Shown in pieces: positions 7,407 through 58,755 of a stretch of DNA of 64,000 nucleotides. Below the pieces are notes generated by a model, which did not search any database, had not been told where the DNA came from, and worked only from the letters and a program-made list of their open reading frames with translations. Where the stretch lies: positions 416,001 through 480,000 of the forward strand of contig CBDFLE010000006.1 of NCBI GenBank assembly GCA_965248925.1, given 5' to 3'. This stretch comes from Candidatus Multivoradales bacterium. GTDB lineage: Bacteria; Acidobacteriota; Thermoanaerobaculia; Multivoradales; J023. Both the position numbers and the translations under genes were made by a program. Positions within the stretch are counted from its first letter, which is position 1, and each line of letters opens with the position of its first letter.

Positions 7407-7440
7407 GCAACACCGAGCCTTTTTCTAAGAGCTGCAACAG

Positions 7441-7478
7441 AAAAAAGCTGGCGCCGCCGACCGCGCCGGCCTTTTTCT
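7441..7478. terminator. Probable intrinsic terminator
   Basis: A-tract, imperfect GC hairpin (gctggcgc...gcgccggc), then T-tract right after the CDS. Confidence 0.55.
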
Positions 7479-8139: not shown

Positions 8140-8279
8140 GAAGTTCAGAACTCTGTTCTTGACCTACTGACCTGAGATGGCCGGTGCATGCAGCGCCGGT
8201 CAGCGTGCGTTTCAGCCCCAGGTAGCTTGGGTGGGGCTGTCGCTGCTCACCATTGGCAGCGGTCGCTATACTGCCCGCC

Positions 8280-9009: not shown

Positions 9010-9076
9010 CCGGCAATCAAGCACGGCGACCTGGCGGCGCTTAGCCAGGCGCCATTCGCTCAACGGCCCTCGTGGC

Positions 9077-10516
9077 TCATTGCTGGCAGGATGGCGTGGT
9101 GTACTCGAAGTCCAAACGCCAGTCCTCGAGCGTGCCGACCGAGCCGGTGAACGGATCCTCCACCCGCAAGGTCCAGGTACCGTGGATACCCTTGCCCAGG
9201 AAGTCGTTGGTGACGGTGTAGAACTGCGAGAAGCAGCCCGAGCACAGCTGATCTTCGGTGCCATCCGGGGCCACCAGGTAGACCCGCAGCTGGGACAGGC
9301 TGGGGTGACTCAAGCTGACATACACGCCGGTGACCGTGATGGTGCCGAAGCCCGACACGAATACGTCTGACTCGACTCCCGCCGGATCACCGTCCGGGAT
9401 GGCGAGCGGCGTATCGGTTGCCGGCCACTGCTGGAAGTTGGTGCAGGTGGCATCTTCGTAAGCACCGATGTCTATCTGCCCGCACCACTTGCGGCAGCTA
9501 TCGTCGAGGTCGTTCTCGCCCCCGAAAGCAATGAAGTTGGGATCGCCGTTGTTGATCGCTGGCGACGGCGGAAAAACATTGACGTTCGGCCGGTAGTCAC
9601 CCGCGGCCGGGTTGGTGAACTGCGGGTCGAAGGACGTGCTACCGGTGCCGCCGAGGCTGGGCAGCACATCGGCCGGCACGATGCTGTAGTTGGCGTCCAC
9701 CAGCCCGCTGTTGTTGATCACCTCGTTCTGCGCCGGCAGGTTGCCCCAGACGATCGAGCTGCGGATGTCGAGAGCAGTGTTGATCTGGTTGACGGTGATC
9801 GCGCCGAGGAAGTTGCCGCCGGCAACGTTGGCACTGACCGTGCTGTTGCGCAGCAGCATGCTGCCGCCACCGCTGAGGTGGATGGCCGAGCCGATGTCGG
9901 CGATGTTGTTGACCAGCAGCGAGTTGATGATCGAGTCCGAGCTGCTGAAGCTCGAGTAGGCGCCACCGGCACTGTTGAAACCGACCGCCTCGTTGCCCTC
10001 GAAGATGCACTGGTCAAAGACCGCGGCTGAGTTGCTGCTGTAGACCGCGCCACCCTGGGCCGCCGGCGGGTTCGACGAGCTGGTCTCGCCGTTGATGAAC
10101 TTGAAGCCCCGGATCAAACTGGCGGTGACCGCCAAGTTGAGCGCCCGCCCTGATTCTTCCGCATCGATCACGCAGGAGCCTGGAGCACCCTTACACTCGA
10201 GGATGATGGACTTGCCGGCGATTAGTAGATTGGCGTTGTTGTTACCTTTGTAGACCCCGGCGTTGACCAGGATCTTGTCACCGTTCACCGCCGCGTTGAT
10301 AGCCGGTTGGATCTTCTTGTACTGGCACGGAACCCTTAGCAGACCAGGGACTGGTTTGCACCTCGGTTTGATCAAGATCGAGATGAACTTGCCGTCCGCA
10401 TCAGCGGCGTCGCCTTGAGCCAGGGCAGGGCTCGCCGCCCAAGTAGCGGCGAGCAAGGCAAGAACAGTGAATGAGGGAAGAAATCTAGCAGCACAAGGAC
10501 TAATAACAATCTCCAT
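9077..10516 (-). CDS. Secreted parallel beta-helix protein with C-terminal proprotein-convertase P-domain
   Basis: Signal peptide; IQPAINAA, GGAVY/GGAY repeats, SPAINNG...IDIGAYE; LRVYLVAPDGT...GTWTLRVED P-domain. Confidence 0.85.
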   Translation of the reverse strand: MEIVISPCAARFLPSFTVLALLAATWAASPALAQGDAADADGKFISILIKPRCKPVPGLLRVPCQYKKIQPAINAAVNGDKILVNAGVYKGNNNANLLIAGKSIILECKGAPGSCVIDAEESGRALNLAVTASLIRGFKFINGETSSSNPPAAQGGAVYSSNSAAVFDQCIFEGNEAVGFNSAGGAYSSFSSSDSIINSLLVNNIADIGSAIHLSGGGSMLLRNSTVSANVAGGNFLGAITVNQINTALDIRSSIVWGNLPAQNEVINNSGLVDANYSIVPADVLPSLGGTGSTSFDPQFTNPAAGDYRPNVNVFPPSPAINNGDPNFIAFGGENDLDDSCRKWCGQIDIGAYEDATCTNFQQWPATDTPLAIPDGDPAGVESDVFVSGFGTITVTGVYVSLSHPSLSQLRVYLVAPDGTEDQLCSGCFSQFYTVTNDFLGKGIHGTWTLRVEDPFTGSVGTLEDWRLDFEYTTPSCQQ

Positions 10517-44252: not shown

Positions 44253-44670
44253 ATGACTCAGTCCAACCCTTCCCAGCTACAAGAGAAAGTAGCCGTCGTC
44301 ACCGGTGGCAACAGCGGCATTGGCCTGGCCACCGCGCTGCGCTTCCGCGACGAGGGCGCCTCCATCGTCCTGGTCTCCTCGACCCTCAACCATCTGGGAC
44401 TGGAGGGATTCTCGGTCTACTCCGCCACCAAGGCGGCCTTGAGGTCCCTTGCCCGCACTTTCGCCAACGAGCTCAAGGGCCGCGGAATCAGAGTCAACCT
44501 GCTCTCCCTGGGCCCCGTCGAAACCCCTCTCTGCGGCCGCTTGGGCCTACCGCAATAGGCGGTAGAAGACTTTGGTGCCGGCATTGCCGAGCAGGTGCCC
44601 TTGGGCCGCTTCGGCAGCTCCGAGGAAATGGCCGCCGCCGCCGACTTGTTGGCTTCGATGCTCCGCACAC
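44253..44670 (+). pseudogene. Short-chain dehydrogenase with internal deletion and stop
   Basis: TGGNSGIG joined directly to SIVLVSS...YSATKAA; stop, then VPLGRFG..EEMA. Confidence 0.85.
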
Positions 44671-44697
44671 AACGCACCTATGGGTAACACTCCGCCC

Positions 44698-44985
44698 ATG
44701 GATACGACCATACGCAATCTCGACAATGAGATCTATCGCCAGCTCAAGGCGCATGCGGCGCGAACGGGTCGGACGATCGGCGAGGCGATCAACGAGGCAA
44801 TGCGGTTCTACTGCGCTGAGCCGAATCCCATTGATCGCTGAGGAAGCCTCTTCGATCTCGAGCCCGAACGCTCTCCCCTAGGCAGCGAGAGGTCGAGTGA
44901 GAACATCGACCAGGTGGTCTACGGAATCGATCGGTGGTCGTCCTCGACTCCGGTTTCCTGATCGCTTTTCACAACCAGCGGCTTG
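44698..44985 (+). pseudogene. Decayed antitoxin (RHH) plus PIN-toxin start
   Basis: MDTTIRNLD..IYR.LKA.AA..G.TIGE..NEA with an in-frame stop; then VVLDSGFLIA truncated. Confidence 0.7.
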
Positions 44986-45190
44986 ACCGCGGTCCCCGAG
45001 CCAGCCGGCTAGCCCGGATCCAAGGTCGAAAAAGGTGCCCGTACGAGTGCCAGGTCATCTGCTTGACAAGGTTATCGACCCGGCGGACGAGGACGGCATC
45101 TTCTAGTTACTGTGATAGCGTGAGGAAACTCTTGTATTGGGCTTGCTTGGCGGGATCTTGGCGGGCCTGGAATCTTGGTGGGTTTGGAAA

Positions 45191-45736
45191 ATGCTGTCGG
45201 CTGAAGTTGACGTCCCCTTCAATGAGCTGTTTATCCAAGCCTATCCGCGAATTGTCGGATTCTTCAAGCGCTATCCGAGAAACTCCGCAGAAGACAGCCG
45301 TGACTTAGCGCAGGAGACCTTTCTGCGGCTCTATCGAAAATGGCGAAACGAGGGTACCGAGAAGGTGCTTTCGGAAAGGTTGCTGATCACCATCGCCCTC
45401 AATATCCAGCGCAACCGGCTACGGGAATTCGCCGGGCCGCGGCATCCGATCGGTCAGATACCGCTCGAGGATGTCCACGCCGCGACCGGCCCCGGACCGG
45501 TCAAAGAAACGCTGGACCGGGAGAGCCTCGAACTGACCCGTCTGGCACTCAAGGAGCTGTCGGAACGCCAGCGCCAAACGCTGCTCTTGCAAGTCCAAGG
45601 ACATAGCCTCGATGAGATCTCCCGCATCCTACAGATCAAGCCGGGAAGCGTCGGGCACCATATCTTTCAAGCTCGAAAGAAGTTGAAGGATGCCTTGGGA
45701 GCACTCTCACCATGGGTGACAGGAGACTCGTCATGA
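45191..45736 (+). CDS. ECF sigma factor
   Basis: DLAQETFLRL, LITIALN, LSERQRQTLLL..G.S..EIS.IL.IK.GSV..HIFQAR; start may be 45137. Confidence 0.9.
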   Translation: MLSAEVDVPFNELFIQAYPRIVGFFKRYPRNSAEDSRDLAQETFLRLYRKWRNEGTEKVLSERLLITIALNIQRNRLREFAGPRHPIGQIPLEDVHAATGPGPVKETLDRESLELTRLALKELSERQRQTLLLQVQGHSLDEISRILQIKPGSVGHHIFQARKKLKDALGALSPWVTGDSS

Positions 45737-46479
45737 GCGGATTTTCCGGATCTCAAGACACACTGCTGAAAGAAATCATCCATCAAGAGCAGGCGCAGGG
45801 AGGCGCCCATCTGCGGGGTGCAGAAGTTGTCGCTTATCACGAGCAGCGCCTGGGGCCGGAGGAGCAGTCCGCAGCCCGCGAGCACCTGGTGCGCTGCCCT
45901 GAATGTCGCCACCTGCTCCTCGCCCTAGGGGATACAGCAGAGGATGTCACCTCGGCCCCAACCCCCGCCGAGCCGACCCGCGAGGCGCTGGCGGAGTTTC
46001 ATGCCAAGGTGCGAACCGCGGGAACAGAGTTACCTACTCGATCCCAGCCGATCGGCTGGTGGAAGATCGCAGCGATTGTTTTGGCGACCTCGAACTTGCT
46101 CCTCCTCGGCTGGATCAGCCTCCGCGAGCCCCCGCCCACGGCGGTCGCCGGCAATCTACTGATCGAGGACATCTACCCCATCGACGACCCCTGGCGAGAC
46201 GGCAGTCCAACGGTGATTCAGCTCAATCCCGAGGTCGAGCAGATAGGTTTTCTACTCCATCTCGGCAGCGACGCGGCGAACTCCCGACGCGAGATCCAGC
46301 TGCTGAACAGTGCTGGCGAAGTGCTGTGGCGTAGCGAGTCACTCACCGTCGACGCCCACGGAATCGCCAGCGTTGCGGTGCCCGCGGCACTGTTGCCCGC
46401 CGCTCGGTACCGGCTGCGACTCGGCGGCGACTCAGCGCAAGAATTCGCGGTGACGATCGAGACCTTCGCCCGGCCATGA
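45733..46479 (+). CDS. zf-HC2 anti-sigma factor with TM and extracytoplasmic beta domain
   Basis: HLVRCPEC zinc motif; TM; ATGA-coupled to the sigma. Confidence 0.85.
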   Translation: MSGFSGSQDTLLKEIIHQEQAQGGAHLRGAEVVAYHEQRLGPEEQSAAREHLVRCPECRHLLLALGDTAEDVTSAPTPAEPTREALAEFHAKVRTAGTELPTRSQPIGWWKIAAIVLATSNLLLLGWISLREPPPTAVAGNLLIEDIYPIDDPWRDGSPTVIQLNPEVEQIGFLLHLGSDAANSRREIQLLNSAGEVLWRSESLTVDAHGIASVAVPAALLPAARYRLRLGGDSAQEFAVTIETFARP

Positions 46480-49355
46480 GGGAACGCTGGCGCCGCTGGA
46501 CAGTGGTGGGCGTGGTGCTGGTCGGGACGGTGTGGGCTGGCCTCGTCTGCGGTCCGGGGTCGCGAGAAGACAGCGGAGAAATACAGGGCCTACCGGTGCG
46601 CGGGGAGTCGAAAAGACTCACTCTAGAGGGCGGCGCGACGGCCGTGTACCGAGTTGCTCTGCCGGTGAATCGCTATCTCGAGGTCGCGGTCGATCAGCAA
46701 GGGGCCGACGTGCTGATCGAGGTCTACGATCCCGAGGGTCTGAGAGTCCTTGAGGTCGACAGCCCCAACGGCACCGACGGCCGGGAAAACATCTCGCTGC
46801 TCAGTGAGACTAGCGGCGACTATCTCTTCGAACTACGATCCCTCAATCCGCCGGGTCGCTCGGGTAGCTTCACTTTGAGCCGTCAGGTGGACCGCGACGC
46901 CAGTGAAAAGGATCGTGCCCGCTTCGCGGTGGAGCGTGCTTTCGCCGCTGCCGAAGAGTTGTTTCGGCGCGGTACCGCCGCCGATCTGACCACTGCCCGC
47001 GAACGCTTTGGCTCGCTGTTGACTCAGTGGCAGAACCTCGGCCTGGCGGCACGGGAAGCGAACACGCAGATGCGGCGAGGCGATACTGAACGAGCCCTTG
47101 GCCTGCACTCAGAGTCGCTGACGGACTATCGTGCGGCCCTCAAACTCGCCGAGTCCCTGGGGGACACCCAGCTCCAAGTGAGTCTCTTTCTGCGCCTCGG
47201 TATAGTGCATTTTAAGATCGGCGAAGCAGAACTGGCAGACGGGTTTTTCCAGCGCTCGCTCGCCGGAGCACGGCAGATATCCTCACCGGCGGACGAGGCC
47301 GCTACGCTTCACAATCTGGCCCTCGCCGCCACCTCGAACGGCCGTTTCCGCCACGCGGTCGAACTCTACCGCCAGGCCCTGGGAATCTTCGATCGTCTCC
47401 AGCTGACCGCCGATCAGGCAAGAGCTTGGAGCAACTTGGGAGAGGTCTACAGCCGGCTTGGCGAGACCCGGCCGGCGGCTCTAGCATTCGAGCGTGCCCT
47501 CGAGCGCTTCCGTTGGCTCGGCGACCGGCGCGGCGAGGGCATTGCCCTCAACAATCTCGGCCTGCTGCACGCACGCGGTGGTGAGCTGGCGACCGCCGAG
47601 CAGATCTTCAGCGAAGCCCTGCAACTCATGCGACAAGTGGGTGACACCGCCAGTGAGGCCCGGACCGAGAACAATCTTGGCTGGATCGCGGGCCTACGTG
47701 GCGCCTTGGACGAGGCCACCTTCCACTACCAGCGAGCCCTAGGAATCGCCCAACGCCTCGGCAATCCGCGCACTGAGGCCAATCTGCTGCTCAATCTCGG
47801 CTGGCTGGCCGGAGCACGGAAGAATCTGGAAGAGTCCCTCCGACTGCACCGCGACGCCCTGGCCCGCTTCCAGGCCCTTGGCGATCCAGTCCAGCAAGCA
47901 CAGGCTCTCTATGGCATCGCCATGGCAGAACATCAAGCGGCAAGAGAAGTCCTGGCACAGGCGGCCTGCGAAGCCGCCATCGAGCAAGTCGAAACAGTCC
48001 GCCAATACATGGCCGGAGATACCCTCGGCATGGCTTTCTTTGCCACCCGCCAAGACCTCTACGACTTCTACATCGACCTGCTGATGACCCGTCACCAGCT
48101 CGACGGTGGCACCACCTACAGCCGCGCCGCCTTCGCGGCTAGCGAACGCTCCCGAGCGCGCGGCTTTCTCGACCTTCTGGCGACTGCGGAACAGGCCTGG
48201 TCGGCCGCATCACCGGTCGGTCTCGAGGCGATCCGTCAGCAGATTCTGGACGACGAGACCGCGCTCCTGCACTACCATTTGGGGTCGCCCCACAGCTACG
48301 TTTGGGTGATGACTCGGAGCAGCTTCGAAGTGCGGATCCTGCCGCGATCGGCCGCCCTCGAAGCTGTGGCGCGGCCCGCCTTGCAGCTGCTCGAGAACAG
48401 CCATCAACGTCGCTACCGGGAAGAGGCGCAGACTCGGCTTCGTCAACTGGCTTCGGCAGTCCTGTGGCCCGCCCTCGAAGGAGTGAAGGCGAACCGACTG
48501 CTGATCGTCGCCGATGGCGCGCTGGCCCGCCTGCCCTTTGCCGCCCTACCGATCCGCGGCGAGTGGCCAGGCGACCGGCCTCTGCTGGCCGCCTACGAAG
48601 TGGTCCATTTGCACTCCGCCTCGACCCTGCTGGCACTCCGTCGCGCCCGCGCTGGCCGACCTCCCGCCAAGGCTCGCCTCGCGGTGCTCGCCGACCCGGT
48701 CTACGCTCCTTCTGACCCTCGCCTGCCGGCACCGCTGGCCACCACCACTCCACCATCGGGCTCTGAGTTCCCGCGGCTGGTGGCGGCCAGCGCCGAGGCG
48801 GCCGCGATCAGCGCCTGGATCCCGGCTGATCAGCGCCTGGTCGCCACCGGAGCCGAAGCCTCCCGACAATTGGTCCTCAGCGGGCGGCTGGCCGATTTTC
48901 GGGTGCTCCACTTCGCCGTCCACAGCGTGCTCGACAGCCAGAGCCCGGATCGCTCATCCCTAGTGCTCTCGCGCTGGGACGCCGAGGGCCGGCCGGTTGA
49001 CGGATTCCTTCGCTTGCGGGACCTGCGGAACCTGAACCTACGAGCCGACACAGTGGTGCTGAGCGGCTGCAGGACAGCTTTGGGCCGGATCTGGGACGGC
49101 GAAGGCATTGTCGGCTTGCCGCAGGCGTTTCTGCTGGCCGGAGCTCGCCAAGTGATCGTCTCGCTGTTTCGCGTTCGCGACCGGGCAACGGCCGAGCTGA
49201 TGGGTCGTTTCTACCAGCGCCACTTCGGCGCCGGCATGCCGGCAGCAGCGGCCCTGCGACATGCTCAGCTTTCGATGGCCGGCGACCCGCGGTGGCAAGC
49301 ACCCGCGGATTGGGCCGGATTCGTCCTCGAAGGCGATTTTTCCCTCTCCCCCTAA
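46476..49355 (+). CDS. CHAT-domain/TPR protein with N-terminal anchor and PPC-like domain
   Basis: VDQQGADV...VDSPNG; multiple TPRs (NLG repeats); SERSRAR, LHFAVH and VLSGCRTALG catalytic motifs, WAGFVL.G. Confidence 0.93.
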   Translation: MRERWRRWTVVGVVLVGTVWAGLVCGPGSREDSGEIQGLPVRGESKRLTLEGGATAVYRVALPVNRYLEVAVDQQGADVLIEVYDPEGLRVLEVDSPNGTDGRENISLLSETSGDYLFELRSLNPPGRSGSFTLSRQVDRDASEKDRARFAVERAFAAAEELFRRGTAADLTTARERFGSLLTQWQNLGLAAREANTQMRRGDTERALGLHSESLTDYRAALKLAESLGDTQLQVSLFLRLGIVHFKIGEAELADGFFQRSLAGARQISSPADEAATLHNLALAATSNGRFRHAVELYRQALGIFDRLQLTADQARAWSNLGEVYSRLGETRPAALAFERALERFRWLGDRRGEGIALNNLGLLHARGGELATAEQIFSEALQLMRQVGDTASEARTENNLGWIAGLRGALDEATFHYQRALGIAQRLGNPRTEANLLLNLGWLAGARKNLEESLRLHRDALARFQALGDPVQQAQALYGIAMAEHQAAREVLAQAACEAAIEQVETVRQYMAGDTLGMAFFATRQDLYDFYIDLLMTRHQLDGGTTYSRAAFAASERSRARGFLDLLATAEQAWSAASPVGLEAIRQQILDDETALLHYHLGSPHSYVWVMTRSSFEVRILPRSAALEAVARPALQLLENSHQRRYREEAQTRLRQLASAVLWPALEGVKANRLLIVADGALARLPFAALPIRGEWPGDRPLLAAYEVVHLHSASTLLALRRARAGRPPAKARLAVLADPVYAPSDPRLPAPLATTTPPSGSEFPRLVAASAEAAAISAWIPADQRLVATGAEASRQLVLSGRLADFRVLHFAVHSVLDSQSPDRSSLVLSRWDAEGRPVDGFLRLRDLRNLNLRADTVVLSGCRTALGRIWDGEGIVGLPQAFLLAGARQVIVSLFRVRDRATAELMGRFYQRHFGAGMPAAAALRHAQLSMAGDPRWQAPADWAGFVLEGDFSLSP

Positions 49356-49488
49356 AGAAAGACCTCCTGACCGGGTTCTTGAAGGTCGAGGCGCCACAGC
49401 ACGGGGCGCCCAATGGACCGCCCTGGACGACGCCGACCTGTGGTCCACGTCCGAGGGGCTCTACCGAGACCACCTCAAGGGAGCCTTC

Positions 49489-49692
49489 ATGAGCGAGATC
49501 GAGAGACCCGCTGAGACCCACTCCGAGAGCCGACTGACCACGGAGCACCCACCATCCAACAGCAGCCCCAGTGGCCTGCCAAAGGCCCAAAGGGGCTCCA
49601 TTGGCACCGGGGGAAACACGCCGCAGGAACCTGGCGTGGAAAATGGCCCCCTCACTTCGCCGATCTCCGAACCGCCGGACGGTGGGGATTGA
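49489..49692 (+). CDS. Small (67 aa) acidic Pro/Ser/Gly-rich peptide
   Basis: AAGGGAG RBS; MSEIERPAET...GSIGTGG...PPDGGD between two proteases. Confidence 0.55.
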   Translation: MSEIERPAETHSESRLTTEHPPSNSSPSGLPKAQRGSIGTGGNTPQEPGVENGPLTSPISEPPDGGD

Positions 49693-49714
49693 GCTGAGTT
49701 GGAAAATCGTCCCA

Positions 49715-51091
49715 ATGTACGCGAAGCACACCATGTCCAACGCTGTCGATGCCACCACCGGCTGCTCCCTCCACCCTCGGCCTCGCCGCTGCGCCTGGCG
49801 CTGGTTGTTGCGCCGAAATCCGGCAAGGGCTCTCGGCCTGCCGCTCGAGGAGCTGGCGCAGGCGATGGCCTTGCCGGCGGGACTCGATACTCGGGATCTG
49901 GCCGACACCGGTTGGGCGGTGGTGTTCCCCGAGGGTTGTGAACCGGAGCGCCGCCGGGCGCTCGCGCCCTTGCTCAACCTACGCCGGGAGCAGGCTGGGT
50001 GCCGCTATCGAGAGCTGATCTACCGACCGCGAGAAGGGGCCGGCGCTTTTCTCGCCCGCCATGGCGTCGCGCCGGGCCAGGGGCCGGTGGAGCCGCAGCG
50101 CCTGCCCTACTATCTCCTGCTCGCCGGCGACCCGCAGGAGATTCCTTTCGCGGTACAGCATTGCCTCGATCTGCGCTATGCCGTCGGCCGATTGCATTTT
50201 CCGCGGCGCTCGGGGGCAGGGGCCGACGATGAAGCTCTGTCCCGCTACGCGCACACAGTTCTGGCAGTGCAACTCGGCAACCTCCATCGCGGTCGCAGGG
50301 CGGCACTATTCGCACCCAGGTTTGGCGATCTGGTCAGCGAATTGATCAGTGATGAGCTGGTACCACCGCTCACGGCAGAGCTGAAGGCCAGCTGCTGGAA
50401 GGTGGACACACTGCTCGCAGCCGATGCCAGCAAGCACCGCCTCCGCGACCTCTTCCAAGTCGAGGCCGCACCGGCCTTGCTATTCGCCGCCACCCACGGT
50501 CTTAACTTTCCCCCCGCTCATGCCCAGCAGCTGAGACGCCAGGGTGCCCTGGTTTGCCAGGGTTGGCGATCCGGAGAAGCACCTCGTGGAGATCAAGTTC
50601 TCGCCGCCAGCGACCTCGGCGCCCCGGCGGGCGGCCTGGTGGCACTGCTCTTTGCCTGCTTTAGCGCCGGCACGCCACGGCAAGATCGTTTCTCTCTCCT
50701 CCGTCAGCCACCACGGCTGGCAAGGCAAGATTTCCTCGCCCGCCTGCCCCTCGACTTGCTGGGCGCCGAAAATGGCGCCCAGGCGGTCTTGGGCCACGTC
50801 GATCGGGCCTGGACCTTCTCCTTTCGCTGGGCCGAGGGCTTTCCCCTGGTCACTATGTTCCGAGATGTCGTCCACCGGATGCTGGCCGGCGAGCCGGTGG
50901 GCGCCGCCATGGAGGCCATCGGCCGCCGTACTGCGGGTCTCGCCGCCGACCTCCTCGACCCGGCGATGCGCGAGGACGCTGAAGCTCTCGAGTCGCTGTG
51001 GACGGCCTATCACGATTGCCGGAGCTTCGTTCTCCTCGGCGATCCGGCGATTCGCTTGGCAGCTGCGAGCGATGCCGAGGGAGACCCATGA
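49715..51091 (+). CDS. Gingipain/C25-like clan CD cysteine peptidase (no signal peptide)
   Basis: PYYLLL.GDP..IPF..Q...AVGRL, ATHG (His), FACFSAG (Cys), GHVDRAW, LLGDPA; start uncertain. Confidence 0.8.
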   Translation: MYAKHTMSNAVDATTGCSLHPRPRRCAWRWLLRRNPARALGLPLEELAQAMALPAGLDTRDLADTGWAVVFPEGCEPERRRALAPLLNLRREQAGCRYRELIYRPREGAGAFLARHGVAPGQGPVEPQRLPYYLLLAGDPQEIPFAVQHCLDLRYAVGRLHFPRRSGAGADDEALSRYAHTVLAVQLGNLHRGRRAALFAPRFGDLVSELISDELVPPLTAELKASCWKVDTLLAADASKHRLRDLFQVEAAPALLFAATHGLNFPPAHAQQLRRQGALVCQGWRSGEAPRGDQVLAASDLGAPAGGLVALLFACFSAGTPRQDRFSLLRQPPRLARQDFLARLPLDLLGAENGAQAVLGHVDRAWTFSFRWAEGFPLVTMFRDVVHRMLAGEPVGAAMEAIGRRTAGLAADLLDPAMREDAEALESLWTAYHDCRSFVLLGDPAIRLAAASDAEGDP

Positions 51092-53097
51092 GCGCCAGGC
51101 GCCCATGGGGCCGGCACAGCCGCTTCGATCGGGGCCGGGCGCTGCTGGTGACCGTTGCCAAGGCGACAGATCCGCCTTGGCTCGGCAGAGTTCTGAGGGA
51201 GGGCGGCAAAGCCTTGCAGGACGTGCTGGTAGATAGCCAACGCTGTGCCTACCACCCCGGCAACGTGATGCGCCTCGACGGCCCCGGCGCCAGCCTCAAG
51301 ATGGTGGACACCGAGCTCGAGCGTCTGGTTGAAGAAGCACGGCAAGGAGACACGGTGATTTTCTATTTCGCTGGTCATGGGAAGCGGGAACTCAACAATG
51401 GAGCCATGGCGCTATCCCTCTGCCTGCACGGCGGCCAACTCCTTTCACCGAGCGCCTTGCAGGCAAAGTTGGATTCCCTGGCCGAGAGGCTGGTCGGCGG
51501 CAAGTTGGTCATCATTCTCGATTGTTGCTGGGCCGGGGCATTGAACCTTCCAGCACCTCCTTTGCCAGGAGCGGCTAGCCCGCCAGCGATTCAGATCCTC
51601 TTCGAGCCTATAGAAAGGGGAGGGGGCCGGGTCGTGTTGGCCGCGGTGAGCGCCGATCAGCAGGCGATGGTGCCTGCCCGTCGCCCGCAGAGCCTGATGA
51701 CCGGCTTTCTTGTCGATGGACTGCGGGGCCAGGCCGGTGGAGCGCTTAGCGGGCGGCTCGGTAGTTGTGTGATCGAAGTCCTCTCCTGGATGCGGTGGCT
51801 GAACGGGTGGAGTCGCCGCTTGCAGGATCGGGGTTGGGGAACGGTGCGGGTCTTCGAACTCTTCGAGTTCGTCAGCCGCCAGGTCGAGAGAGAAGCCCAT
51901 CGGCAAGGCCTGGCGATTCACACGGTGGTGCTCAAGGCGGACGTGCGCCGCAACTTCGCCCTCGCCCTGCGACTCCCGAGCCTCTGGCTCTGTCTGCTAA
52001 TCCTAGCGGTCTTGGCTGCCGCTCTGGCCCTGCTCTACTGTCCCGAAGTAGAGCTCGGGCTGCGCGGCCCGCCGGTGGCCACCCTCGGAGCCCAAGTGTT
52101 GATCGAAGTGCGCGCCGATCGCTGTGTTGGCGGTGAGCTTGGCCTGGTCGCTCGCGCCGCGGCGGGAGGCGGCTGGTATCTCATCGGCACCCGCCGCATC
52201 ACGACCGCGGGGGTCTACCCCTTCGCCTTTGAGCCCGCCACCGAAACTCTGCAGGGAGAAGACTCCTATCAGCTGCGGGCCGTGCTCAGCCAACAGGCGC
52301 TGCCTCCAGGACCGTTCTCCCTGCCCCCGACCGCCGGTCGCTGGCGCCGATTGCTGATCCGACTGGCGCAAGTTGCCGGGGTCGACCCTCCGCCACCGGC
52401 CAGCATCTCCCCACCTACGGAGTTGCGCCTGGGGGCGATAGAAATCCTCAGCATCAACGGACAAGACCGAGCAGCCGCCCAACCGTCTCAGGCGGTGCCG
52501 GCGCTCGCCAGCGTCGCTGGCGTGGCCCACAACTTAGAGGGACAGCGGGTCGAGCTGCGGATCCGAGCACCAGGAGCCTCCGCGGTAGAGAGTCGGAGGG
52601 TAGCGCTGGTCGAAGGCGGCCGCTGGCAAGTCGCCTCTGTGCCACTGCGCGACGCCTACGCCTGGCATCCCCAAGATGTCGCCCTCGAGGCACGGATCGA
52701 GCTTGTCGGCGTCGAACCCTTCGTCTCCGCGGCCTGGAATCTCCGACTCGAGCCGCCGCGAGCTTGGATCATTGCTGCCGCCGACTGGACGCGCGGCGAG
52801 CAAGACTGTCGGCTACCCCCTTGGAGTAGCTTCGAGATCCGCGGCAGGGCACTGCATGTCCTCCCAGGAGAGGAGGCTTGTGTGGCGATCCTCGGCGAGG
52901 GTAAGACTACCCAAACCGGGCTGTGGTGCCGGCGGGCGGAGATAGACCCGGGCGGTCGCTGGGAGACGCGCATCGAAATCGCCGATGGCGAGCGTTTCCA
53001 GCTCTTCGCCGCGGTGTGCGCGAGGTGCCCGGATCGCCGCGGCCTGGCCACCCTGGGGACGGCGCAGCTCTGTCGGGCGAAAGGCAGCGGGCGATGA
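51088..53097 (+). CDS. Caspase-family (C14) peptidase with TM and extracytoplasmic repeat domains
   Basis: FYFAGHG and ILDCC dyad; TM LWLCLLILAVLAAALALL; ATGA-coupled. Confidence 0.85.
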   Translation: MSARRPWGRHSRFDRGRALLVTVAKATDPPWLGRVLREGGKALQDVLVDSQRCAYHPGNVMRLDGPGASLKMVDTELERLVEEARQGDTVIFYFAGHGKRELNNGAMALSLCLHGGQLLSPSALQAKLDSLAERLVGGKLVIILDCCWAGALNLPAPPLPGAASPPAIQILFEPIERGGGRVVLAAVSADQQAMVPARRPQSLMTGFLVDGLRGQAGGALSGRLGSCVIEVLSWMRWLNGWSRRLQDRGWGTVRVFELFEFVSRQVEREAHRQGLAIHTVVLKADVRRNFALALRLPSLWLCLLILAVLAAALALLYCPEVELGLRGPPVATLGAQVLIEVRADRCVGGELGLVARAAAGGGWYLIGTRRITTAGVYPFAFEPATETLQGEDSYQLRAVLSQQALPPGPFSLPPTAGRWRRLLIRLAQVAGVDPPPPASISPPTELRLGAIEILSINGQDRAAAQPSQAVPALASVAGVAHNLEGQRVELRIRAPGASAVESRRVALVEGGRWQVASVPLRDAYAWHPQDVALEARIELVGVEPFVSAAWNLRLEPPRAWIIAAADWTRGEQDCRLPPWSSFEIRGRALHVLPGEEACVAILGEGKTTQTGLWCRRAEIDPGGRWETRIEIADGERFQLFAAVCARCPDRRGLATLGTAQLCRAKGSGR

Positions 53098-54821
53098 CGT
53101 TCCGAGGCGAGAGTCCAACCCGGATGGGAGCGGCACTGCTGCGCCGGCTCGGCGTTTCTCGATTGCGGCTCCCCTGCCGACTGAAGAGGGTGTTGGCGGT
53201 GCTGTGGCCGCTCCTGATGCCGCTGCCCCTGGTCGCCGGGGCGCCAGTTTCCTCACCGGTCAAGGTAGAGATCGTCTCTATCGCCGGGCGGAAGGTGCGG
53301 CAGGTGGTGGAAGTAGAGGCACAGGAGGATATGGCCGGCACCCTGGCCACCATCTCTTCCGGTCTGCCCGAATCCACCTGGGTGCTACAGATTGCCCGCC
53401 GTGAAGTGGGGCAACAGGACTGGCACATCTTGCGCCCTCTGGCCAAGCTCGAGGTAGCGCAACGGGAAATCCAGTGGCGGCTCACCGGGGTGGATTTCGG
53501 TAGCGGCCTGGCCTTTGGCGGCTGTGGTCGCGACTTCGAAGTGATGGCGGTCGCAGCTACCCACCCCCTGCCCCTATCGGCCTTCGGCGAGATGGCCTTG
53601 AGCGCCGCCGCCGCGCTCTCCGCGCCGGTCAAAGTGCACCGCCAGGCGTGCCGCCTGCCGCCGCTACCGGCTCCACAGCCCAACATCCGTATCGCCGAAA
53701 TCGGCACGCGTGCGGTAGATCCCGACAGCAGGTACGAGGTCCGCCTGCAAGAGACCCTCCACGGCGAAGTCATAAAAACGGCCGAAACGGTCGTCAGATT
53801 AGTGGTACAGCCGCTCAACGTGACCGCGAGGTGGGTGATGGAAATGGATCCGCAGATCAGCGGACCACGGTGGACCGGACAGGCTCTGTTCGGGCGCCAA
53901 GGGTTGGATGAGTGGGTGGATTTTCTGGTCTTTGCGGTAGTGACGGATCCGCGCCTACCGACCGGCCGAGGCATCAAACCCGACGAGTGGCGCCGCCTGC
54001 AGCGCCAGTTCTTCCTGGCCACCTCGCCTGCCATCCTGGTGCGCCGGGTCGAGTTGCCCGAGGGAGAGCAAGGCACCCTCGAGATTCTGGCCATCGAAGG
54101 TAAGAGCGTGGCGGAACCCGGCCTCTACTTGGTCGATCGGCTCAGCGGCATTGTCGGCATCCTGCAAGGACATTCCCGATCGCGCAATGAGGATGTTTGG
54201 GTGCTGGCCATGGAGCGACACGGTGACGATGTGTGGCGGGTGCTCGGCAAGGCCTCCATCCGTGACCATCGCTTCTGGCAACTTCCACCCACCACCCTGG
54301 GCAAGCCGGGAGCGCTTATCGACCTGGTCGCCGTGCTGTCGCCACAACCGATTGTCACTTTGGGCTCCGATGCAATAAATCACGAGATATCGATCTCCCA
54401 GCGGGTGCAGGTGATCCTCGACGACCGGTCGCCGGTGGAGCTGCTTTGGACTTGTGTTGGCGGCCAGCAGGCCGCCGAGCTGGAAACCTTGACGGTACCG
54501 CCGTTCGGTGATTTGGCAGGACTGGTCGGCGGACGCCCGCTGGCGCCTGAAGAGCAAGTCACGATCTTCAAGCGGCGGCCTGACAAGGGGCCCTGGCAGC
54601 TCCTCCGTCATGCCAGCTTCGACAGCGAGCAACGCAGCCATTGGTCGGTCTTGCCGGTGGAGCTCGGCCGACCCGGCGAAAGCTTGCTGCTGCTGGCGGC
54701 GATCACCCGTGGCGAGGTGCGCGACCCGGAGAGCGCCGATCCTGGCGCCATCGTACGCCTCTCCCACCTGCTCGAAATCAAGATCAGGAAGACCCGCGGA
54801 GCCTACGGCAGATGCCGGTGA
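53094..54821 (+). CDS. Exported protein with ~4 beta-rich repeat domains
   Basis: Signal-like stretch; repeats starting VEIVSIAG/IRIAEIG/LEILAIEG/VELLWTCVGG; ATGA-coupled. Confidence 0.75.
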   Translation: MTFRGESPTRMGAALLRRLGVSRLRLPCRLKRVLAVLWPLLMPLPLVAGAPVSSPVKVEIVSIAGRKVRQVVEVEAQEDMAGTLATISSGLPESTWVLQIARREVGQQDWHILRPLAKLEVAQREIQWRLTGVDFGSGLAFGGCGRDFEVMAVAATHPLPLSAFGEMALSAAAALSAPVKVHRQACRLPPLPAPQPNIRIAEIGTRAVDPDSRYEVRLQETLHGEVIKTAETVVRLVVQPLNVTARWVMEMDPQISGPRWTGQALFGRQGLDEWVDFLVFAVVTDPRLPTGRGIKPDEWRRLQRQFFLATSPAILVRRVELPEGEQGTLEILAIEGKSVAEPGLYLVDRLSGIVGILQGHSRSRNEDVWVLAMERHGDDVWRVLGKASIRDHRFWQLPPTTLGKPGALIDLVAVLSPQPIVTLGSDAINHEISISQRVQVILDDRSPVELLWTCVGGQQAAELETLTVPPFGDLAGLVGGRPLAPEEQVTIFKRRPDKGPWQLLRHASFDSEQRSHWSVLPVELGRPGESLLLLAAITRGEVRDPESADPGAIVRLSHLLEIKIRKTRGAYGRCR

Positions 54822-57322
54822 GAGCCCTGATATTTCTGGCTCTGCTGGGCTGGCCCGGCCTGGGGCAAGGCCAGCAGCCGATCGCCGGTGGACCAGCGCC
54901 CGCGGCGACTTCGATACATCCCAGCTACGGCCCGCTGATCCATCTTCGGCGCCTCGGCGGGCTCGCCCTCGAGCCTGGGTCGCCGCCGCTTCGCTTGGAT
55001 GCTTACCGCGCCTGGGCGGGGCTCGACGCCGACCTCGAAATCTGGCCACCTTCAGTGCCTGCCGGAAGTGTCTGGGTGATGGTCCAGGGCCGCAGTAGCG
55101 ACACTTGGCTAGCCTACGGGCCCGCCAACCACAGCCAAGGAAGGTGGATCGTGCCCGGCGTTCGTCTCGGTGAAGGCATCGACCAGGGGCGCAGCTACCA
55201 ACTACGGGCGGCGATCCTGCCCGAAGATCTGGTGCCACGCTCCGGTCATCCAGTGGTGGGTTGGCTGGCACGGGCGCTGGTGTTTTCGCCGGCAGTGTCG
55301 ATCAGCGTCGAGCATCGTGCGGTCATACCCCTGCAACCCGCTGGCGCGGCCCGCTTGTGGATCTCGACCATCGATCACCGCACACCAGCAGTGCTCGAGC
55401 CGATGGCAACGGCCGCGGTCGTCGAGGTCGAGGGAACACTCGCTCTTCCAGATGACCTGGCCACAGCAGCAGTGAGCGGCGAATCGCCCCAAGTCTATGT
55501 GGTGGTAAGGCCCGCTGGCGGCAGCGGGCGGCGGGTCTTCGGCCCCGCCGGGATCAGTGGCGGGACCTGGCGGCAGGCCGAAGTAGCGGTGGCGGAAGCT
55601 GGAGAACGGCATTGGCTGCACTACCGGCTCCATGCCGTCTTGGCCTCAGAACCACCGCCGGGGGATCTCGAGAACGATGCCGCCTACAGCCGTTGGCGAC
55701 ACGGTGCAAGGGCGGCTTCCCGCTCCATCGATCTCACCATTCGGCCACGAGAGACACCGCCTAGTCTGCCGGCTCCAGAGATCTACCTCGAGGCAGTGAA
55801 GACCGCCCAAGGCGAAATCCTCGGCGACCAACAACCTGTCTTCGTGCGCACCGACGACCCGATTGTCGAGATCAGCGGCCGGGTGGAGGGCGCGCCTCAA
55901 GGCGCCTATGTCTGGGTGCTCGTTCATTCGCCGAACACCCCGGTCTGGGAGACCCTGGGGCCGGCCCTGCTCGAGCCTCCGCGCTGGCGGCTACCGCTTG
56001 CCGCCGGCAGTCCCCGGAGCCCCGCCACCGGTTCGCGAATGATGGCCATCTTGACCACCGAGGCCCAATTGACAGGCTGGGTGAGGTACGCCTCCTGGCG
56101 GCGCCGGGCTCTGGCGGTTTCAGAAAGCCTGAGCTTGCAGTTCGTGGGCGCTGGCGAAACGCGAGACCAGGGATCTGCCGAATCCAGCCTTAGGATCCGC
56201 CGTGTCGCGGGGACGGTAGTCGGCAAGGCGCCGGCCGAGGCGGCATTGAGCGACGATCCGTCGGTACAAGGTTCCGTCACTGGCCTGCCCGCGGATGCCG
56301 GAGTGTGGGTGGCCAGCCGCCCCCTCAAGGCGCAGCAGTGGGCCCTCAGCGGCCCGGCGCTGATCCACGGCGACCACTGGTACTTGCCACAGGCGCGCTT
56401 TGCCGACGGCACAGAGGCGACCGATCGCCCGGGGGAGTTTGACCTTGTTGCCCTCGTCGCCACCGGTGAGCCACCGGCACCAGCCATCGCCCAGACCGAC
56501 CTACGCTGGCTGGCCCGCGCCACCTCACCGGTAGTGCGGATCCGTGATCTCGATGCCAAGCCGCGGACCCGACAGCGGCGAACATTCACTTTCTGGAGGG
56601 CCTTGCCGATGGATCTATGGCTGCTACCCCTGGCGATCGTGCTGCTGCTGGTTGTCCTGCTCACCCTGGCCTCCCTATTCGAGACGTTCGCTCGCCTCTG
56701 CCTGGACCTCGCCCAGAATGTAGATCGGCTCAGCGTCTACCTGCACCGGCAGTTTGCCTACCTCCCTAGAACTCGGGCCGACGCCTCGGTGATCGGACTC
56801 ATCGTGCTCGCCATAGCTCTCTTTGCCATCTCCGTCTACCTACCCGTTTACACCCAAGTCCTGGCAACCACCTTCAAATTGACCGAAGAGGTGGCGAAAA
56901 GCCTTGCCTTGATGCTGGTCTGCGCCACCGGCCTGGCCGGCATCCTCATTCACTTATCGCTCGAATTCGAAGACCAGGAACGGGCGGGATTTCTGTCCAA
57001 TTTTCTCGCTAGCCTGTGCATGTGCGTGACCCCACTCCTGTGGTTCTTCCAGGCGGTGGTCTACCACCACTTCTACTCGCAACAGCTCGGTTCCGCCGGG
57101 GAGGCGTCCCTGCCCTTCGCCATGGCCCTGGCGGCGTTCTTTATCTCCTTTATCGAAACCCTCGCTTTCTTCTGGGCGACCCGTCTCGGGCTCGGCGTGA
57201 TTACCTGGCTTTGCGTACATCTGCTACTCGCTCCATTGCACCTACTAGCCCGCCTGGCAGAGTTGGCCGGGAAGTCTCGGCAACCTGGCGACATCCACAA
57301 CAAAAGTGAGGCAAGCCCATGA
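54812..57322 (+). CDS. Exported repeat protein (~4 domains) with C-terminal multi-pass membrane region
   Basis: Signal peptide; repeated G...VWV.V...W...GPA...W..P motifs; ~6 hydrophobic helices at the C-terminus. Confidence 0.78.
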   Translation: MPVRALIFLALLGWPGLGQGQQPIAGGPAPAATSIHPSYGPLIHLRRLGGLALEPGSPPLRLDAYRAWAGLDADLEIWPPSVPAGSVWVMVQGRSSDTWLAYGPANHSQGRWIVPGVRLGEGIDQGRSYQLRAAILPEDLVPRSGHPVVGWLARALVFSPAVSISVEHRAVIPLQPAGAARLWISTIDHRTPAVLEPMATAAVVEVEGTLALPDDLATAAVSGESPQVYVVVRPAGGSGRRVFGPAGISGGTWRQAEVAVAEAGERHWLHYRLHAVLASEPPPGDLENDAAYSRWRHGARAASRSIDLTIRPRETPPSLPAPEIYLEAVKTAQGEILGDQQPVFVRTDDPIVEISGRVEGAPQGAYVWVLVHSPNTPVWETLGPALLEPPRWRLPLAAGSPRSPATGSRMMAILTTEAQLTGWVRYASWRRRALAVSESLSLQFVGAGETRDQGSAESSLRIRRVAGTVVGKAPAEAALSDDPSVQGSVTGLPADAGVWVASRPLKAQQWALSGPALIHGDHWYLPQARFADGTEATDRPGEFDLVALVATGEPPAPAIAQTDLRWLARATSPVVRIRDLDAKPRTRQRRTFTFWRALPMDLWLLPLAIVLLLVVLLTLASLFETFARLCLDLAQNVDRLSVYLHRQFAYLPRTRADASVIGLIVLAIALFAISVYLPVYTQVLATTFKLTEEVAKSLALMLVCATGLAGILIHLSLEFEDQERAGFLSNFLASLCMCVTPLLWFFQAVVYHHFYSQQLGSAGEASLPFAMALAAFFISFIETLAFFWATRLGLGVITWLCVHLLLAPLHLLARLAELAGKSRQPGDIHNKSEASP

Positions 57323-58137
57323 AAATGTTTCTCGTCGCTCCTATTGTGCTCATCCTGATCGCCTGCATTATTTGGTATCTTGTCAAACCAGATCCCTGGA
57401 AACCAGAGGGGGAGACCTATCGACGCGACATCTTCCTACTGATTGACCAGACTCCGTCGATAAGCGAAGAGGAATTCGGACTGCTCAAAGACCTAGCCTT
57501 GAAAAAAATAATAAAGCATCTTGGTCCGGGTGATCGGCTCTCTTGCTTCAGCGTTGATGTGGAGTTCACAGAAGCAGATGACCTGATCTTCGAGGCCGCG
57601 GGAGAGTTGCCGAAGCTGCCAGACAACTATCCGGTCGAAGAAACTGATCCATGGCCGGAACGAGCGCGATTGGACCTTGCCCGCCGGTGGGCGTCGTTCG
57701 AGCCCATCCGGGCGGACTGGGTCGAAAAGATTACCGCACTCGAACTCTTACCTCCCACCAAGAGCAGCGACTATTTCCCGGCCATCGAGTATCTGGGCGG
57801 GCTGATGACGACGAGATGCAAAGCCGCCGAGTGCTGGCTGATCGTCCTGGGAGATCTCAAGCATGAGCCCTTGTCTGATCTCGAATCCATGGCCGACGAC
57901 CTAGCCACCCCGAGCTTGTTCACCGGGGTCAAGGCGCGACTGGTGTCGCCTTACGGCACAAACTCCGACGCAGAGCAAAAGAAAATCGAAGGCGCCTGGG
58001 AGAAGTTCTTCCCTCACCCAGACGACCAAGACCATCTATTCAATTCGCTTGTCGGTTTCTCCGGCCTACCCGAAACCAGCGCACCGCGTCCCGAATCCCT
58101 AGCCAAAAACCCTACTGAACCGCAAGGGGGTCCATGA
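57319..58137 (+). CDS. Membrane-anchored VWA-like protein
   Basis: N-terminal TM; IFLLIDQTPS (MIDAS-like DxTxS), SDYFPAI, LIVLGD. Confidence 0.65.
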   Translation: MKMFLVAPIVLILIACIIWYLVKPDPWKPEGETYRRDIFLLIDQTPSISEEEFGLLKDLALKKIIKHLGPGDRLSCFSVDVEFTEADDLIFEAAGELPKLPDNYPVEETDPWPERARLDLARRWASFEPIRADWVEKITALELLPPTKSSDYFPAIEYLGGLMTTRCKAAECWLIVLGDLKHEPLSDLESMADDLATPSLFTGVKARLVSPYGTNSDAEQKKIEGAWEKFFPHPDDQDHLFNSLVGFSGLPETSAPRPESLAKNPTEPQGGP

Positions 58138-58643
58138 TGTCCACAATTCCGAATTCTCCGATCCGTACTCTGGCCAAGACCTCGACCAGGCGCGGCGGGC
58201 CTCGCGGGTCGGCAAAGTTGTTGGGGCTTGCGTTGCTAGTTCTCACCGCTGGTGGCTGCGCTTCAGCCCCTGCGGCCCTCGACGTACAGCCGCGGACCGA
58301 GTTGGTCGCTTGGCAGTTCGACCCCTCGTGTGCTGAGACGCAGCCCTGTCCACGGGTCTACATTCGCGGACGGGCGCCCGCCGGGCTGGCCGTCTTCGTG
58401 GCGGTGGCTCCCCTCACCGCGGCTCCCAAGATGTGGATCCAGCCGCCCATCCTAGTCCGCAGAGACGGCTCTTTCGAAGGTCTTGCCTATCTCGGGTCCG
58501 AAACCCAAGGCGCTGGCCAGAGGTTCCAACTGCTGGTCCTGGCACATCGGGACCCGCAGCGTTTTCGCACCGAGGAAATCTTGACCGACGTCCCCCTCGA
58601 CTGCACGGTCAGCGATCCTGTGACCGTCCAACGAGTCCACTAG
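58134..58643 (+). CDS. Lipoprotein with one copy of the operon repeat domain
   Basis: Lipobox-like AGGC; RGRAP...VFVAV.P...WIQPP...DGSF...LG...G.RFQL.VLA. Confidence 0.75.
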   Translation: MMSTIPNSPIRTLAKTSTRRGGPRGSAKLLGLALLVLTAGGCASAPAALDVQPRTELVAWQFDPSCAETQPCPRVYIRGRAPAGLAVFVAVAPLTAAPKMWIQPPILVRRDGSFEGLAYLGSETQGAGQRFQLLVLAHRDPQRFRTEEILTDVPLDCTVSDPVTVQRVH

Positions 58644-58656
58644 AAGGGAGGTCAGA

Positions 58657-58755
58657 ATGAAAGTCTTCTGGATCTGTACCCTGCTCAGCGGGTGTTGGGC
58701 CGCGGAGGCCTTCGGTCAAGAAGAGAGCCGACTCGGCCTGAGACAAGAACCCTAG
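58657..58755 (+). pseudogene. Truncated exported-protein start
   Basis: GGGAGG RBS; MKVFWICTLLSGCWAAEAFGQEE signal peptide, stop after 32 aa. Confidence 0.45.

Follow-up and report, generated by a model that had tools for sequence, protein, structure and literature searches.

An operon of an Acidobacteriota genome that joins an ECF sigma factor, three clan-CD proteases and an envelope repeat cassette: a candidate composite system

Several described systems combine caspase-fold proteases with sigma factors, sensors or latent effectors, and the reports on them provide the background against which the locus discussed here can be read. In Myxococcus xanthus, the DdvS/DdvA pair consists of a sigma factor of the extracytoplasmic function (ECF) class and a transmembrane anti-sigma factor that carries a periplasmic TPR-CHAT region; this region has been proposed to act as the site-1 protease upstream of RseP, and fused proteins of the DdvA kind are described mainly from Myxococcota (PMC11506125). 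In a type III-B CRISPR system of Haliangium ochraceum, SAVED-CHAT cleaves and thereby activates PCaspase, and genes for a sigma factor and for an inhibitor of small size, PCi, lie in the same locus (bioRxiv 10.1101/2023.06.23.546230). Protease-effector modules pair a caspase-like or trypsin-like protease and its sensor with a latent effector encoded beside them; the effector genes adjoin those of caspase-like proteases whose fused sensors are of the FGE, STAND or transmembrane (TM) kind (bioRxiv 10.1101/2025.11.14.688446). The subject of the present analysis is an operon at positions 45137–58755, on the + strand, of a 64,000-nucleotide stretch of the genome of a Candidatus Multivoradales bacterium (phylum Acidobacteriota; contig CBDFLE010000006.1; host genome ~8 Mb in 6 contigs). 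That whole stretch is referred to below as the window.

Two modules make up the operon. Module A encodes an ECF sigma factor, a zinc-binding anti-sigma factor, a TPR-CHAT lipoprotein, an acidic peptide, a C25-like peptidase of the gingipain superfamily and a third clan-CD protease, which in the window is a caspase. Module B encodes a secreted protein with four repeats (rep575), a four-repeat protein with six TM segments (rep836) and a TM-anchored VWA-like protein (p272), and is followed by a probable lipoprotein with a single repeat (p169). Physically, it is the caspase that bridges the two modules. The reading we favor, tentatively and with a probability of roughly 40%, is that this composite, sigma-linked system would survey the cell envelope and answer with clan-CD proteases, most likely in conflict or cell death. 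All ten open reading frames (ORFs) are co-directional and stand in the order given by a preliminary description made from the sequence alone; a mini-ORF for 32 amino acids forms an eleventh (Table 1).

Table 1. Coordinates and main features of the operon, numbered from the first letter of the window.
Feature	Start	End	Strand	Remarks
ECF sigma factor	45191	45736	+	ORF opens at TTG 45137; likely start ATG 45191
Zinc-binding anti-sigma factor, 248 aa	45733	46479	+	H-x3-C-x2-C, one TM helix, ~110-aa extracytoplasmic domain
Exported TPR-CHAT protein, 959 aa	46476	49355	+	PPC-like domain, TPR repeats, then CHAT protease
Acidic peptide, 67 aa (pep67)	49489	49692	+	Pro/Gly/Ser/Thr-rich, no signal peptide, AAGGGAG ribosome-binding site
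Cytoplasmic C25-like (gingipain-superfamily) cysteine peptidase	49733	51091	+	Homologue family, dyad
Caspase (C14)	51088	53097	+	Cytoplasmic caspase domain, one TM helix, three extracytoplasmic module-B-type repeats
rep575, exported four-repeat protein	53094	54821	+	Signal-like N-terminus; repeats at independent E-values of 1e-26 to 1e-29
rep836	54812	57322	+	Signal peptide, four repeats, C-terminal 6-TM domain (six hydrophobic segments)
p272	57319	58137	+	N-terminal TM helix and VWA-like domain
p169, probable lipoprotein with one repeat	58134	58643	+	LLVLTAGGC before the mature part; repeat 4.9e-16
32-aa ORF	58657	58755	+	Strong ribosome-binding site (AAGGGAGG), lipobox-like LLSGC; read from the sequence

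The evidence for the bridge lies in the architecture of the caspase, in which the TM helix (residues ~298–318) is followed by repeats at residues 318–407, 442–546 and 554–645. The preliminary description had noted repeat-domain surface proteins, and these repeats are real, but the three copies in the caspase itself were absent from it. The caspase domain passes PF00656 narrowly (1.2e-4, 22.3 bits against a cut-off of 21.4), while the model for EACC1-associated caspases, NF047832, gives 1.3e-19 but only 70.5 bits, under its cut-off of 140; no EACC1-like partner was matched when the operon proteins were scanned against libraries of hidden Markov models (HMMs). The catalytic columns, GHG and D-x-C (here D-C-C), are kept in all ten relatives whose rows cover the region, a further two of the 12 aligned rows being without coverage there. 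Matches to the caspase occur in 22 of 60 related genomes and extend over residues ~10–228 only, and a search of PDB sequences with the caspase domain returned nothing useful. Since the protein carries a TM helix and three repeats belonging to the family that also makes up the repeats of the envelope cassette, the cytoplasmic caspase would be coupled to the condition of that assembly of envelope proteins.

The repeat itself is a unit of about 95 amino acids that is present twelve times in the operon, four times each in rep575 and rep836, once in p169 and three times at the C-terminus of the caspase, and every copy sits behind a signal peptide or a TM helix. Pfam provides no family for rep575 or rep836, nor for any of ten repeat-profile proteins tested. 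In a structural model derived from the 12 copies, the fold is all-beta and the core has a predicted local distance difference test score (pLDDT) of 82–93. The best Foldseek match to this model has an E-value of 0.11, with no match at E<=1e-3, and the best score in VIA is a weak Z of 5.0 among mixed Ig/FN3-like, phage-baseplate and ubiquitin-like rows. Distant matches to the repeat profile carry Big_3_3, Big_13, Y_Y_Y and Gmad2 domains (92 matches other than the 6-TM proteins were scanned, a few of them with generic bacterial Ig-like domains). Because the fold searches are weak, the repeat is called here a beta-sandwich, probably Ig-like, and nothing more specific.

When the 12-repeat profile was run against 1.84 billion proteins, 130 matched at E<=1e-3 and 53 at E<=1e-10. 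The 6-TM domain is common to 36 of the 130, the window's protein included, with E-values down to 1e-40 for full-length proteins, and Y676, Y680, Q747 and E782 of rep836 are invariant; other matches are rep575-like proteins with four repeats and 530–540 amino acids. A word-based search had found rep836 only itself, and the idea that it is an orphan was abandoned when the profile search revealed the family. Three of ten singly scanned proteins with long non-repeat parts have a cytoplasmic effector-type domain, then a TM helix, then the repeat, the effector domain being CHAT in P0243, TIR in P0241 and DUF4062 in P0247, and the window caspase has this same layout. A scan of metagenomes for the cassette returned one locus (L106, GC 46%), in which rep575-like (1.3e-68), rep836-like (1.3e-109) and p272-like (9e-39) genes follow one another in the order of the window. 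An Amidase_3 gene and genes for two small membrane proteins come after the cassette in L106 (14138–15840), an arrangement reminiscent of a lysis cassette. A reading of the repeat/VWA cassette as similar to the Bat (aerotolerance) operon was also considered and dropped, no Bat family having appeared in the Pfam scans.

The assignment of p272 has a more mixed basis. None of p272, its sole relative in word searches (P0123, 66% identity) and its L106 homologue gave a VWA match in HMM scans, and a p272 profile searched against PDB sequences gave none either. On the other hand, a profile of the three sequences aligned by hhalign with VWA_2 domains of the same genome at 76.5% over 45 columns (controls 0.0–0.1%), and the aligned stretch covers beta1, the metal-ion-dependent adhesion site (MIDAS) and beta2, including D43-Q-T45-P-S47; the conserved motifs are D-Q-T-x-S, SDY and GDLKHEP. 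The AlphaFold2 (AF2) model has a moderate pLDDT of 63.4 (34–47 for the other four models) and draws 93 Foldseek matches at E<=1e-3 (best 5.3e-5, target-normalised TM-score up to 0.61), and every named domain among the top rows is VWA or VWA-like, integrin-I included. The earlier label of a VWA-like protein is supported by the MIDAS alignment and the fold search but not by HMM matching, and is reasonable but not secure.

For module A, the surroundings of C25-like homologues from many phyla, 80 loci in all, were searched with all ten window proteins; seven of these loci had less than 1.5 kb of downstream sequence. Matches to the TPR-CHAT protein were found in 17, to the sigma factor in 10 and to the anti-sigma factor in nine, almost all of them in Acidobacteriota. 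A second CHAT-family gene lies within 6 kb in 56 of the 80, and in 47, again from many phyla, a CHAT-family gene is on the same strand and at most 1.5 kb from the C25-like gene (30 downstream, 17 upstream). When members of the neighbour cluster were tested, three of four matched CHAT, and the Nostoc member is a 1650-aa nSTAND1-WD40 protein. The neighbour of the C25-like gene elsewhere is a CHAT protease fused to STAND, WD40, TPR or FGE sensors, and in the window it is the caspase.

The same genome contains four copies of the C25-like gene, each directly 3′ of a TPR-CHAT gene. One of the three paralogous loci encodes a sigma factor, a putative anti-sigma factor, CHAT, an acidic peptide, C25, a CHAT-FGE protein on the opposite strand and a soluble C14 caspase; another has CHAT, C25 and CHAT-nSTAND5-TPR; and the one designated L102 has a CHAT-C25 fusion ORF followed by a further CHAT gene. 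None of the three contains the repeats. Taken together, the copies in this genome and the related loci make the series TPR-CHAT, C25-like peptidase and third clan-CD protease a recurrent theme whose third member is variable. As to L102 itself (4834–10179; G000:C6, ~1.26 Mb), a single frame of 1782 amino acids joins the TPR-CHAT and C25-like parts and is either a true fusion or due to the loss of a stop codon; the gene for a HEAT-like protein of 1090 amino acids comes after it, as does the further CHAT gene.

The C25-like peptidase of the window belongs to a family with at least 777 homologues at E<=1e-3 (among 8000 candidates scored). Its H285-G286 and C339 are invariant in 25 aligned sequences, 24 of which match PF01364 (E<=0.01, best 8e-11). 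Gingipains are secreted and carry a signal peptide; this family departs from that architecture, with a signal-like N-terminus in none of 120 homologues, and 105 of the 120 have a motif of the kind NG[ILV][DNH][GA]x[ST]G near residue 12. A search of PDB sequences with the family profile found no solved relative. The closest relatives of the window protein come from metagenome-assembled genomes of Thermoanaerobaculia (Acidobacteriota), and on a quick tree the C25-like proteins linked to TPR-CHAT cluster together, with 5 label changes as compared to 17.5 in shuffles.

At the head of module A stands a sigma factor that has only the sigma-2 and sigma-4 regions and ~180–200 amino acids, as is typical of the ECF class (group IV). 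It matches Sigma70_r4_2 (PF08281) at 4.4e-13, Sigma70_r2 (PF04542) at 9.8e-7 and TIGR02937 at 6.3e-16 (58.4 bits, cut-off 42.9), and its best solved relatives are ECF sigmas of the SigH and SigE types. The anti-sigma factor has the layout of the zinc-binding anti-sigma (ZAS) type, in which an N-terminal H-x3-C-x2-C motif, visible in the sequence as HLVRCPECRH, precedes a TM helix (residues ~107–130) and the gene adjoins that of the sigma factor through an ATGA overlap. Its matches to zf-HC2 (PF13490; E 4.3e-4, 20.8 bits, under the cut-off of 22.2) and NF052375 (1.4e-7, 31.8 bits against a cut-off of 100) are sub-threshold but specific. That its outer domain might be a copy of the module-B repeat was ruled out (E 0.83).

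The third protein of the trio matches CHAT (PF12770) at 6e-61 and 206.8 bits and TPR_12 at 1.3e-32, the PPC match being weak (0.068). The catalytic H812/H816 and C865 are invariant across 15 homologues. These begin with a hydrophobic leader that ends in Cys in most of them (a lipoprotein-type signal, judged by eye), and the window's protein carries its own signal with Cys, such that it is probably an exported lipoprotein; in PDB sequences the CHAT domain found TPR matches only and no solved CHAT at the sequence level. The initial claim that three different clan-CD proteases accompany an ECF sigma/anti-sigma pair is thus borne out, the catalytic His/Cys pairs being intact in all three.

Between the TPR-CHAT and C25-like genes lies that of the acidic peptide, pep67, for which no family was matched in HMM library scans (Pfam, PADLOC-DB, NCBIfam) and which by sequence was found in none of the 80 C25-like loci. 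The G+C content at the third codon position (GC3) of its gene is 0.72, higher than at the first and second positions (GC1 and GC2). Of 18 loci that were inspected, eight have a small acidic ORF directly 3′ of the TPR-CHAT gene, namely those of the window, L010, L005, L002, L033, L078, L080 and the own-genome paralogue L100. This ORF is 47–71 amino acids long and Pro/Gly/Thr-rich, and usually has a ribosome-binding site ahead of it. L010 and L005 have a 47-codon frame in common, with nucleotide differences of 9, 8 and 17 at the first, second and third codon positions. From these features of the sequences we regard the peptide gene as genuine and as linked to that of CHAT.

Two other small elements were noticed in related loci. 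In relatives (L010 9391–9780, L005 1076–1465, L002 2994–3395, L033 9377–9799), the gene for a conserved lipoprotein of 129–140 amino acids separates that of the acidic peptide from that of the C25-like peptidase; this lipoprotein gene is not in the window. In L001, L007 and L018, small ORFs on the minus strand downstream of CHAT have a common C-terminal stretch resembling LLPxSLLSIVFSF, which may be conserved DNA only.

The coupling of the ten genes is as tight as had been described, in that most junctions overlap: there are six ATGA overlaps, at sigma/anti-sigma (45733), anti-sigma/CHAT (46476), C25/caspase (51088), caspase/rep575 (53094), rep836/p272 (57319) and p272/p169 (58134), and an overlap of 10 nucleotides between rep575 and rep836 (ATGCCGGTGA, 54812). 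The only gaps are those of 133 nucleotides between CHAT and the peptide and 40 nucleotides between the peptide and C25. Codon-position GC is consistent with each proposed frame, and the starts given in Table 1 for the sigma, C25-like, caspase, rep575 and rep836 genes are the likely true ones. The end of the operon as first described, 58755, is the stop of the additional 32-aa ORF, which may or may not be a gene. GC3 is uniform, at 0.72–0.76 for most genes, and host-like except in p272 (0.64) and the sigma gene (0.67), so that the composition gives no sign of recent transfer. Scans for terminator and promoter consensus sequences in the operon found sites no more numerous than in shuffled sequence.

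Upstream of the operon are genes for a TonB-dependent receptor and a TetR regulator, part of a truncated short-chain dehydrogenase (SDR) gene, and an antitoxin-like ORF together with a PIN-like fragment; genes for a TetR regulator and for a phosphonate ABC transporter lie downstream. The SDR fragment (44253–44558) covers only positions ~114–187 of the model and is followed by the antitoxin-like ORF of 54 amino acids (44681–44842) and an N-terminal PIN-like fragment near 44930–44985. Judged by their sequences, these remnants (44253–44985) look like a rearrangement scar directly 5′ of the operon.

How might these parts work together? The predicted topology fits envelope sensing, with a leader on the TPR-CHAT protein, the repeats outside and the caspase domain in the cytoplasm, and to this extent the original suggestion of an envelope sensor agrees with the data. 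While gene order and coupling, domains, dyads, topology signals and the recurrence of the parts can be read directly, we infer the protease cascade that was suggested with it and its link to the sigma factor, as well as every cleavage step, the regulon of the sigma factor, what triggers the system and what results from it. The exported TPR-CHAT protein may act on the outer part of the anti-sigma factor by cutting it, as proposed for the fused DdvA, and the ECF sigma factor would then be freed via regulated proteolysis. The C25-like peptidase and the protease that adjoins it would form a two-protease pair, one member cutting and so activating its partner in the manner of SAVED-CHAT and PCaspase, and one of the operon's proteases could have the acidic peptide as its co-factor, its substrate or a pseudosubstrate. 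The outer repeats of the caspase would couple this pair to the repeat/6-TM/VWA-like assembly formed by rep575, rep836, p272 and p169.

A bolder and distinctly unlikely version of this scheme can be envisioned, in which the proteins that carry an effector domain before a TM helix and repeat are an undescribed class of transmembrane death receptors. The periplasmic repeat would dock on an Ig-repeat/6-TM/VWA complex and report damage or invasion to the cytoplasmic caspase (elsewhere to CHAT, TIR or DUF4062), which would in turn fire the C25-like peptidase as an executioner zymogen. In parallel, a split switch of the DdvA type would reprogramme transcription, and the acidic, disordered peptide would restrain a separase-like CHAT as securin does separase.

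Several observations weigh against the reading of the operon as a composite system that surveys the envelope. The first concerns the two modules themselves: the caspase, rep575, rep836, p272 and p169 were each found in none of the 80 C25-like loci, a search of 400 further genomes from the phylum did not find the rep836 family, and neither a protease nor a sigma gene is present in L106, where the neighbours are esterases, an amidase and a hybrid kinase. Module B was thus never seen with module A elsewhere, the full ten-gene combination is found in this genome only, and the functional link between the modules therefore rests on one genome. These counts do not support the genes as one conserved system, and when the refuting condition named in the preliminary description is applied, the repeat genes are not seen to accompany the sigma/CHAT trio elsewhere. 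The window's C25-like peptidase is the sole member of the 25 aligned that fails to match PF01364 (E 0.07, 12.8 bits against a cut-off of 23), and on the quick tree it sits on a long, compositionally odd branch; the initial domain calls were confirmed above cut-off by HMMs for CHAT and C14, but not for Peptidase_C25 or VWA. The acidic peptide is missing from six loci with divergent gene order (as it also is where CHAT and C25 abut), and because it lacks a signal peptide while the TPR-CHAT protein is exported, contact between the two would be topologically awkward. As for regulation, no ECF-type promoter common to the region upstream of the sigma gene and the CHAT–peptide gap was found by eye, and the element TGTGC(C/G)ATACT, which resembles an extended −10 and lies ~110 nucleotides 5′ of the sigma coding region in L001, L007, L008, L018, L021 and L030, hints at transcription by the housekeeping sigma rather than ECF autoregulation. 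Finally, the flanks of the operon are housekeeping genes rather than a defence island, and the matches in PADLOC-DB v2 were limited to a generic TPR model (PDLC01169), a caspase model (PDLC02987) at 5e-6 and, weakly, a CARF-HTH model.

One alternative is that a lineage-typical module of sigma factor, CHAT, C25-like peptidase and third protease lies by chance upstream of an unrelated envelope cassette, the two sharing a transcript without any joint function. The modules are conserved separately and never together elsewhere, the cassette of L106 manages without proteases, and the truncated SDR and antitoxin/PIN fragments upstream suggest rearrangement at the site. We nonetheless consider chance juxtaposition unlikely, as the TM helix of the caspase is followed by three repeats of the kind that characterises the cassette, the caspase gene overlaps those of both the C25-like peptidase and rep575 by ATGA, and GC3 is uniform across the operon. 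An ECF sigma factor with a membrane anti-sigma factor is also a classic design of an envelope-stress response, and the operon could serve envelope homeostasis or the maturation of surface proteins, with the sigma arm reporting stress and the proteases processing or turning over the repeat, VWA, 6-TM or other envelope proteins. The extracytoplasmic location of all module-B domains, the housekeeping flanks and the lack of a matched PADLOC system would be in keeping with such a role. Against it stands the cytoplasmic location of the C25-like peptidase and of the caspase domain, whereas the repeat and VWA-like domains are outside; in addition, the partner proteases elsewhere bear STAND, WD40 and FGE sensors typical of conflict systems, and the repeat is also found behind TIR and DUF4062 domains, which makes homeostasis likewise unlikely. 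A third possibility is that the operon serves regulated cell death, development or kin and contact recognition in a social or aggregating lifestyle, rather than phage defence, with the repeat/VWA complex as contact receptor. VWA and Ig-like folds are common modules of adhesion and recognition, such folds appear among the rows of the fold searches, and the C25-like/CHAT pair is frequent in Nostoc and Chloroflexota, which are filamentous or multicellular groups. Yet nothing in the analysis bears on contact or development and the fold match of the repeat is weak, so this role must be rated very unlikely.

Several points make the locus of interest. The cytoplasmic C25-like family, with its many phyla, is a steady neighbour of CHAT proteases, and if one protease of the pair activates the other, cascades like that of SAVED-CHAT and PCaspase would be far commoner than the few CRISPR-linked cases suggest. 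The split trio of sigma factor, anti-sigma factor and TPR-CHAT protein extends the DdvA design beyond Myxococcota, and since protease and substrate would here be separate proteins, it offers an easier test in vitro. The repeat/6-TM/VWA-like cassette and the proteins with caspase, CHAT, TIR or DUF4062 before a TM helix and repeat are families that lack a Pfam model, and this latter layout resembles that of receptor-effector proteins.

It remains to set the locus beside the systems described at the outset. The PADLOC search agreed with the expectation that the operon matches the signature proteins of no named anti-phage system. The literature search found no paper on the pairing of C25-like peptidases and CHAT, although supplements may bear on its distribution; a paper on conflict systems (PMC7159879, supplement apart) has no mention of CHAT, C25 or gingipain, and the main text of an ECF classification paper (PMC7826278) none of CHAT, caspase or TPR. 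The claim that the locus is undescribed consequently holds for the full combination, which is unnamed, but not for its parts, for which DdvS/DdvA and SAVED-CHAT/PCaspase are named precedents.

With DdvS/DdvA the operon has in common an ECF sigma factor, a cytoplasmic zinc anti-sigma domain, a single TM helix and an extracytoplasmic TPR-CHAT region with its His/Cys dyad, as well as the proposed logic by which CHAT would act as site-1 protease ahead of an intramembrane cleavage. Self-cleavage in response to a signal, release that depends on RseP and the regulation of defence genes are further marks of the DdvA type. DdvA is, however, one polypeptide, whereas here the anti-sigma factor and the TPR-CHAT protein are separate genes (Table 1), and the genes downstream are proteases and an envelope cassette rather than CBASS or CRISPR. 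The likeness to SAVED-CHAT/PCaspase is that a single locus brings differing clan-CD proteases together with genes for a sigma factor and for a small protein; activation of one protease by the other is a feature of that system and is proposed for the window operon by analogy. In contrast to it, the ten window proteins contain no SAVED, CD-NTase or Cas match, there are three proteases of which one is C25-like, and the sensor parts are extracytoplasmic; no relation was detected between pep67 and PCi. Type III-E Craspase, with Csx29, Csx30, Csx31 and an ECF sigma factor as components, also links a TPR-CHAT protein (Csx29) to such a sigma factor and cleaves the sigma-binding partner, but it is cytoplasmic and RNA-guided, and no Cas7-11, Csx30 or Csx31 is present in the window operon (PMC11506125; bioRxiv 10.1101/2023.06.23.546230). 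The protease-effector modules resemble the locus in that a gene adjoins a caspase or CHAT protease with a variable sensor, this genome having CHAT-FGE and CHAT-nSTAND5 beside C25-like genes, and differ from it in that the neighbour here is a C25-like protease and not MBL, alpha/beta-hydrolase, Pepco or EACC1. Overall, the parts of the operon have named precedents, and the pairing of C25-like peptidase with CHAT, the families of the envelope cassette and the ten-gene combination would be its new side.

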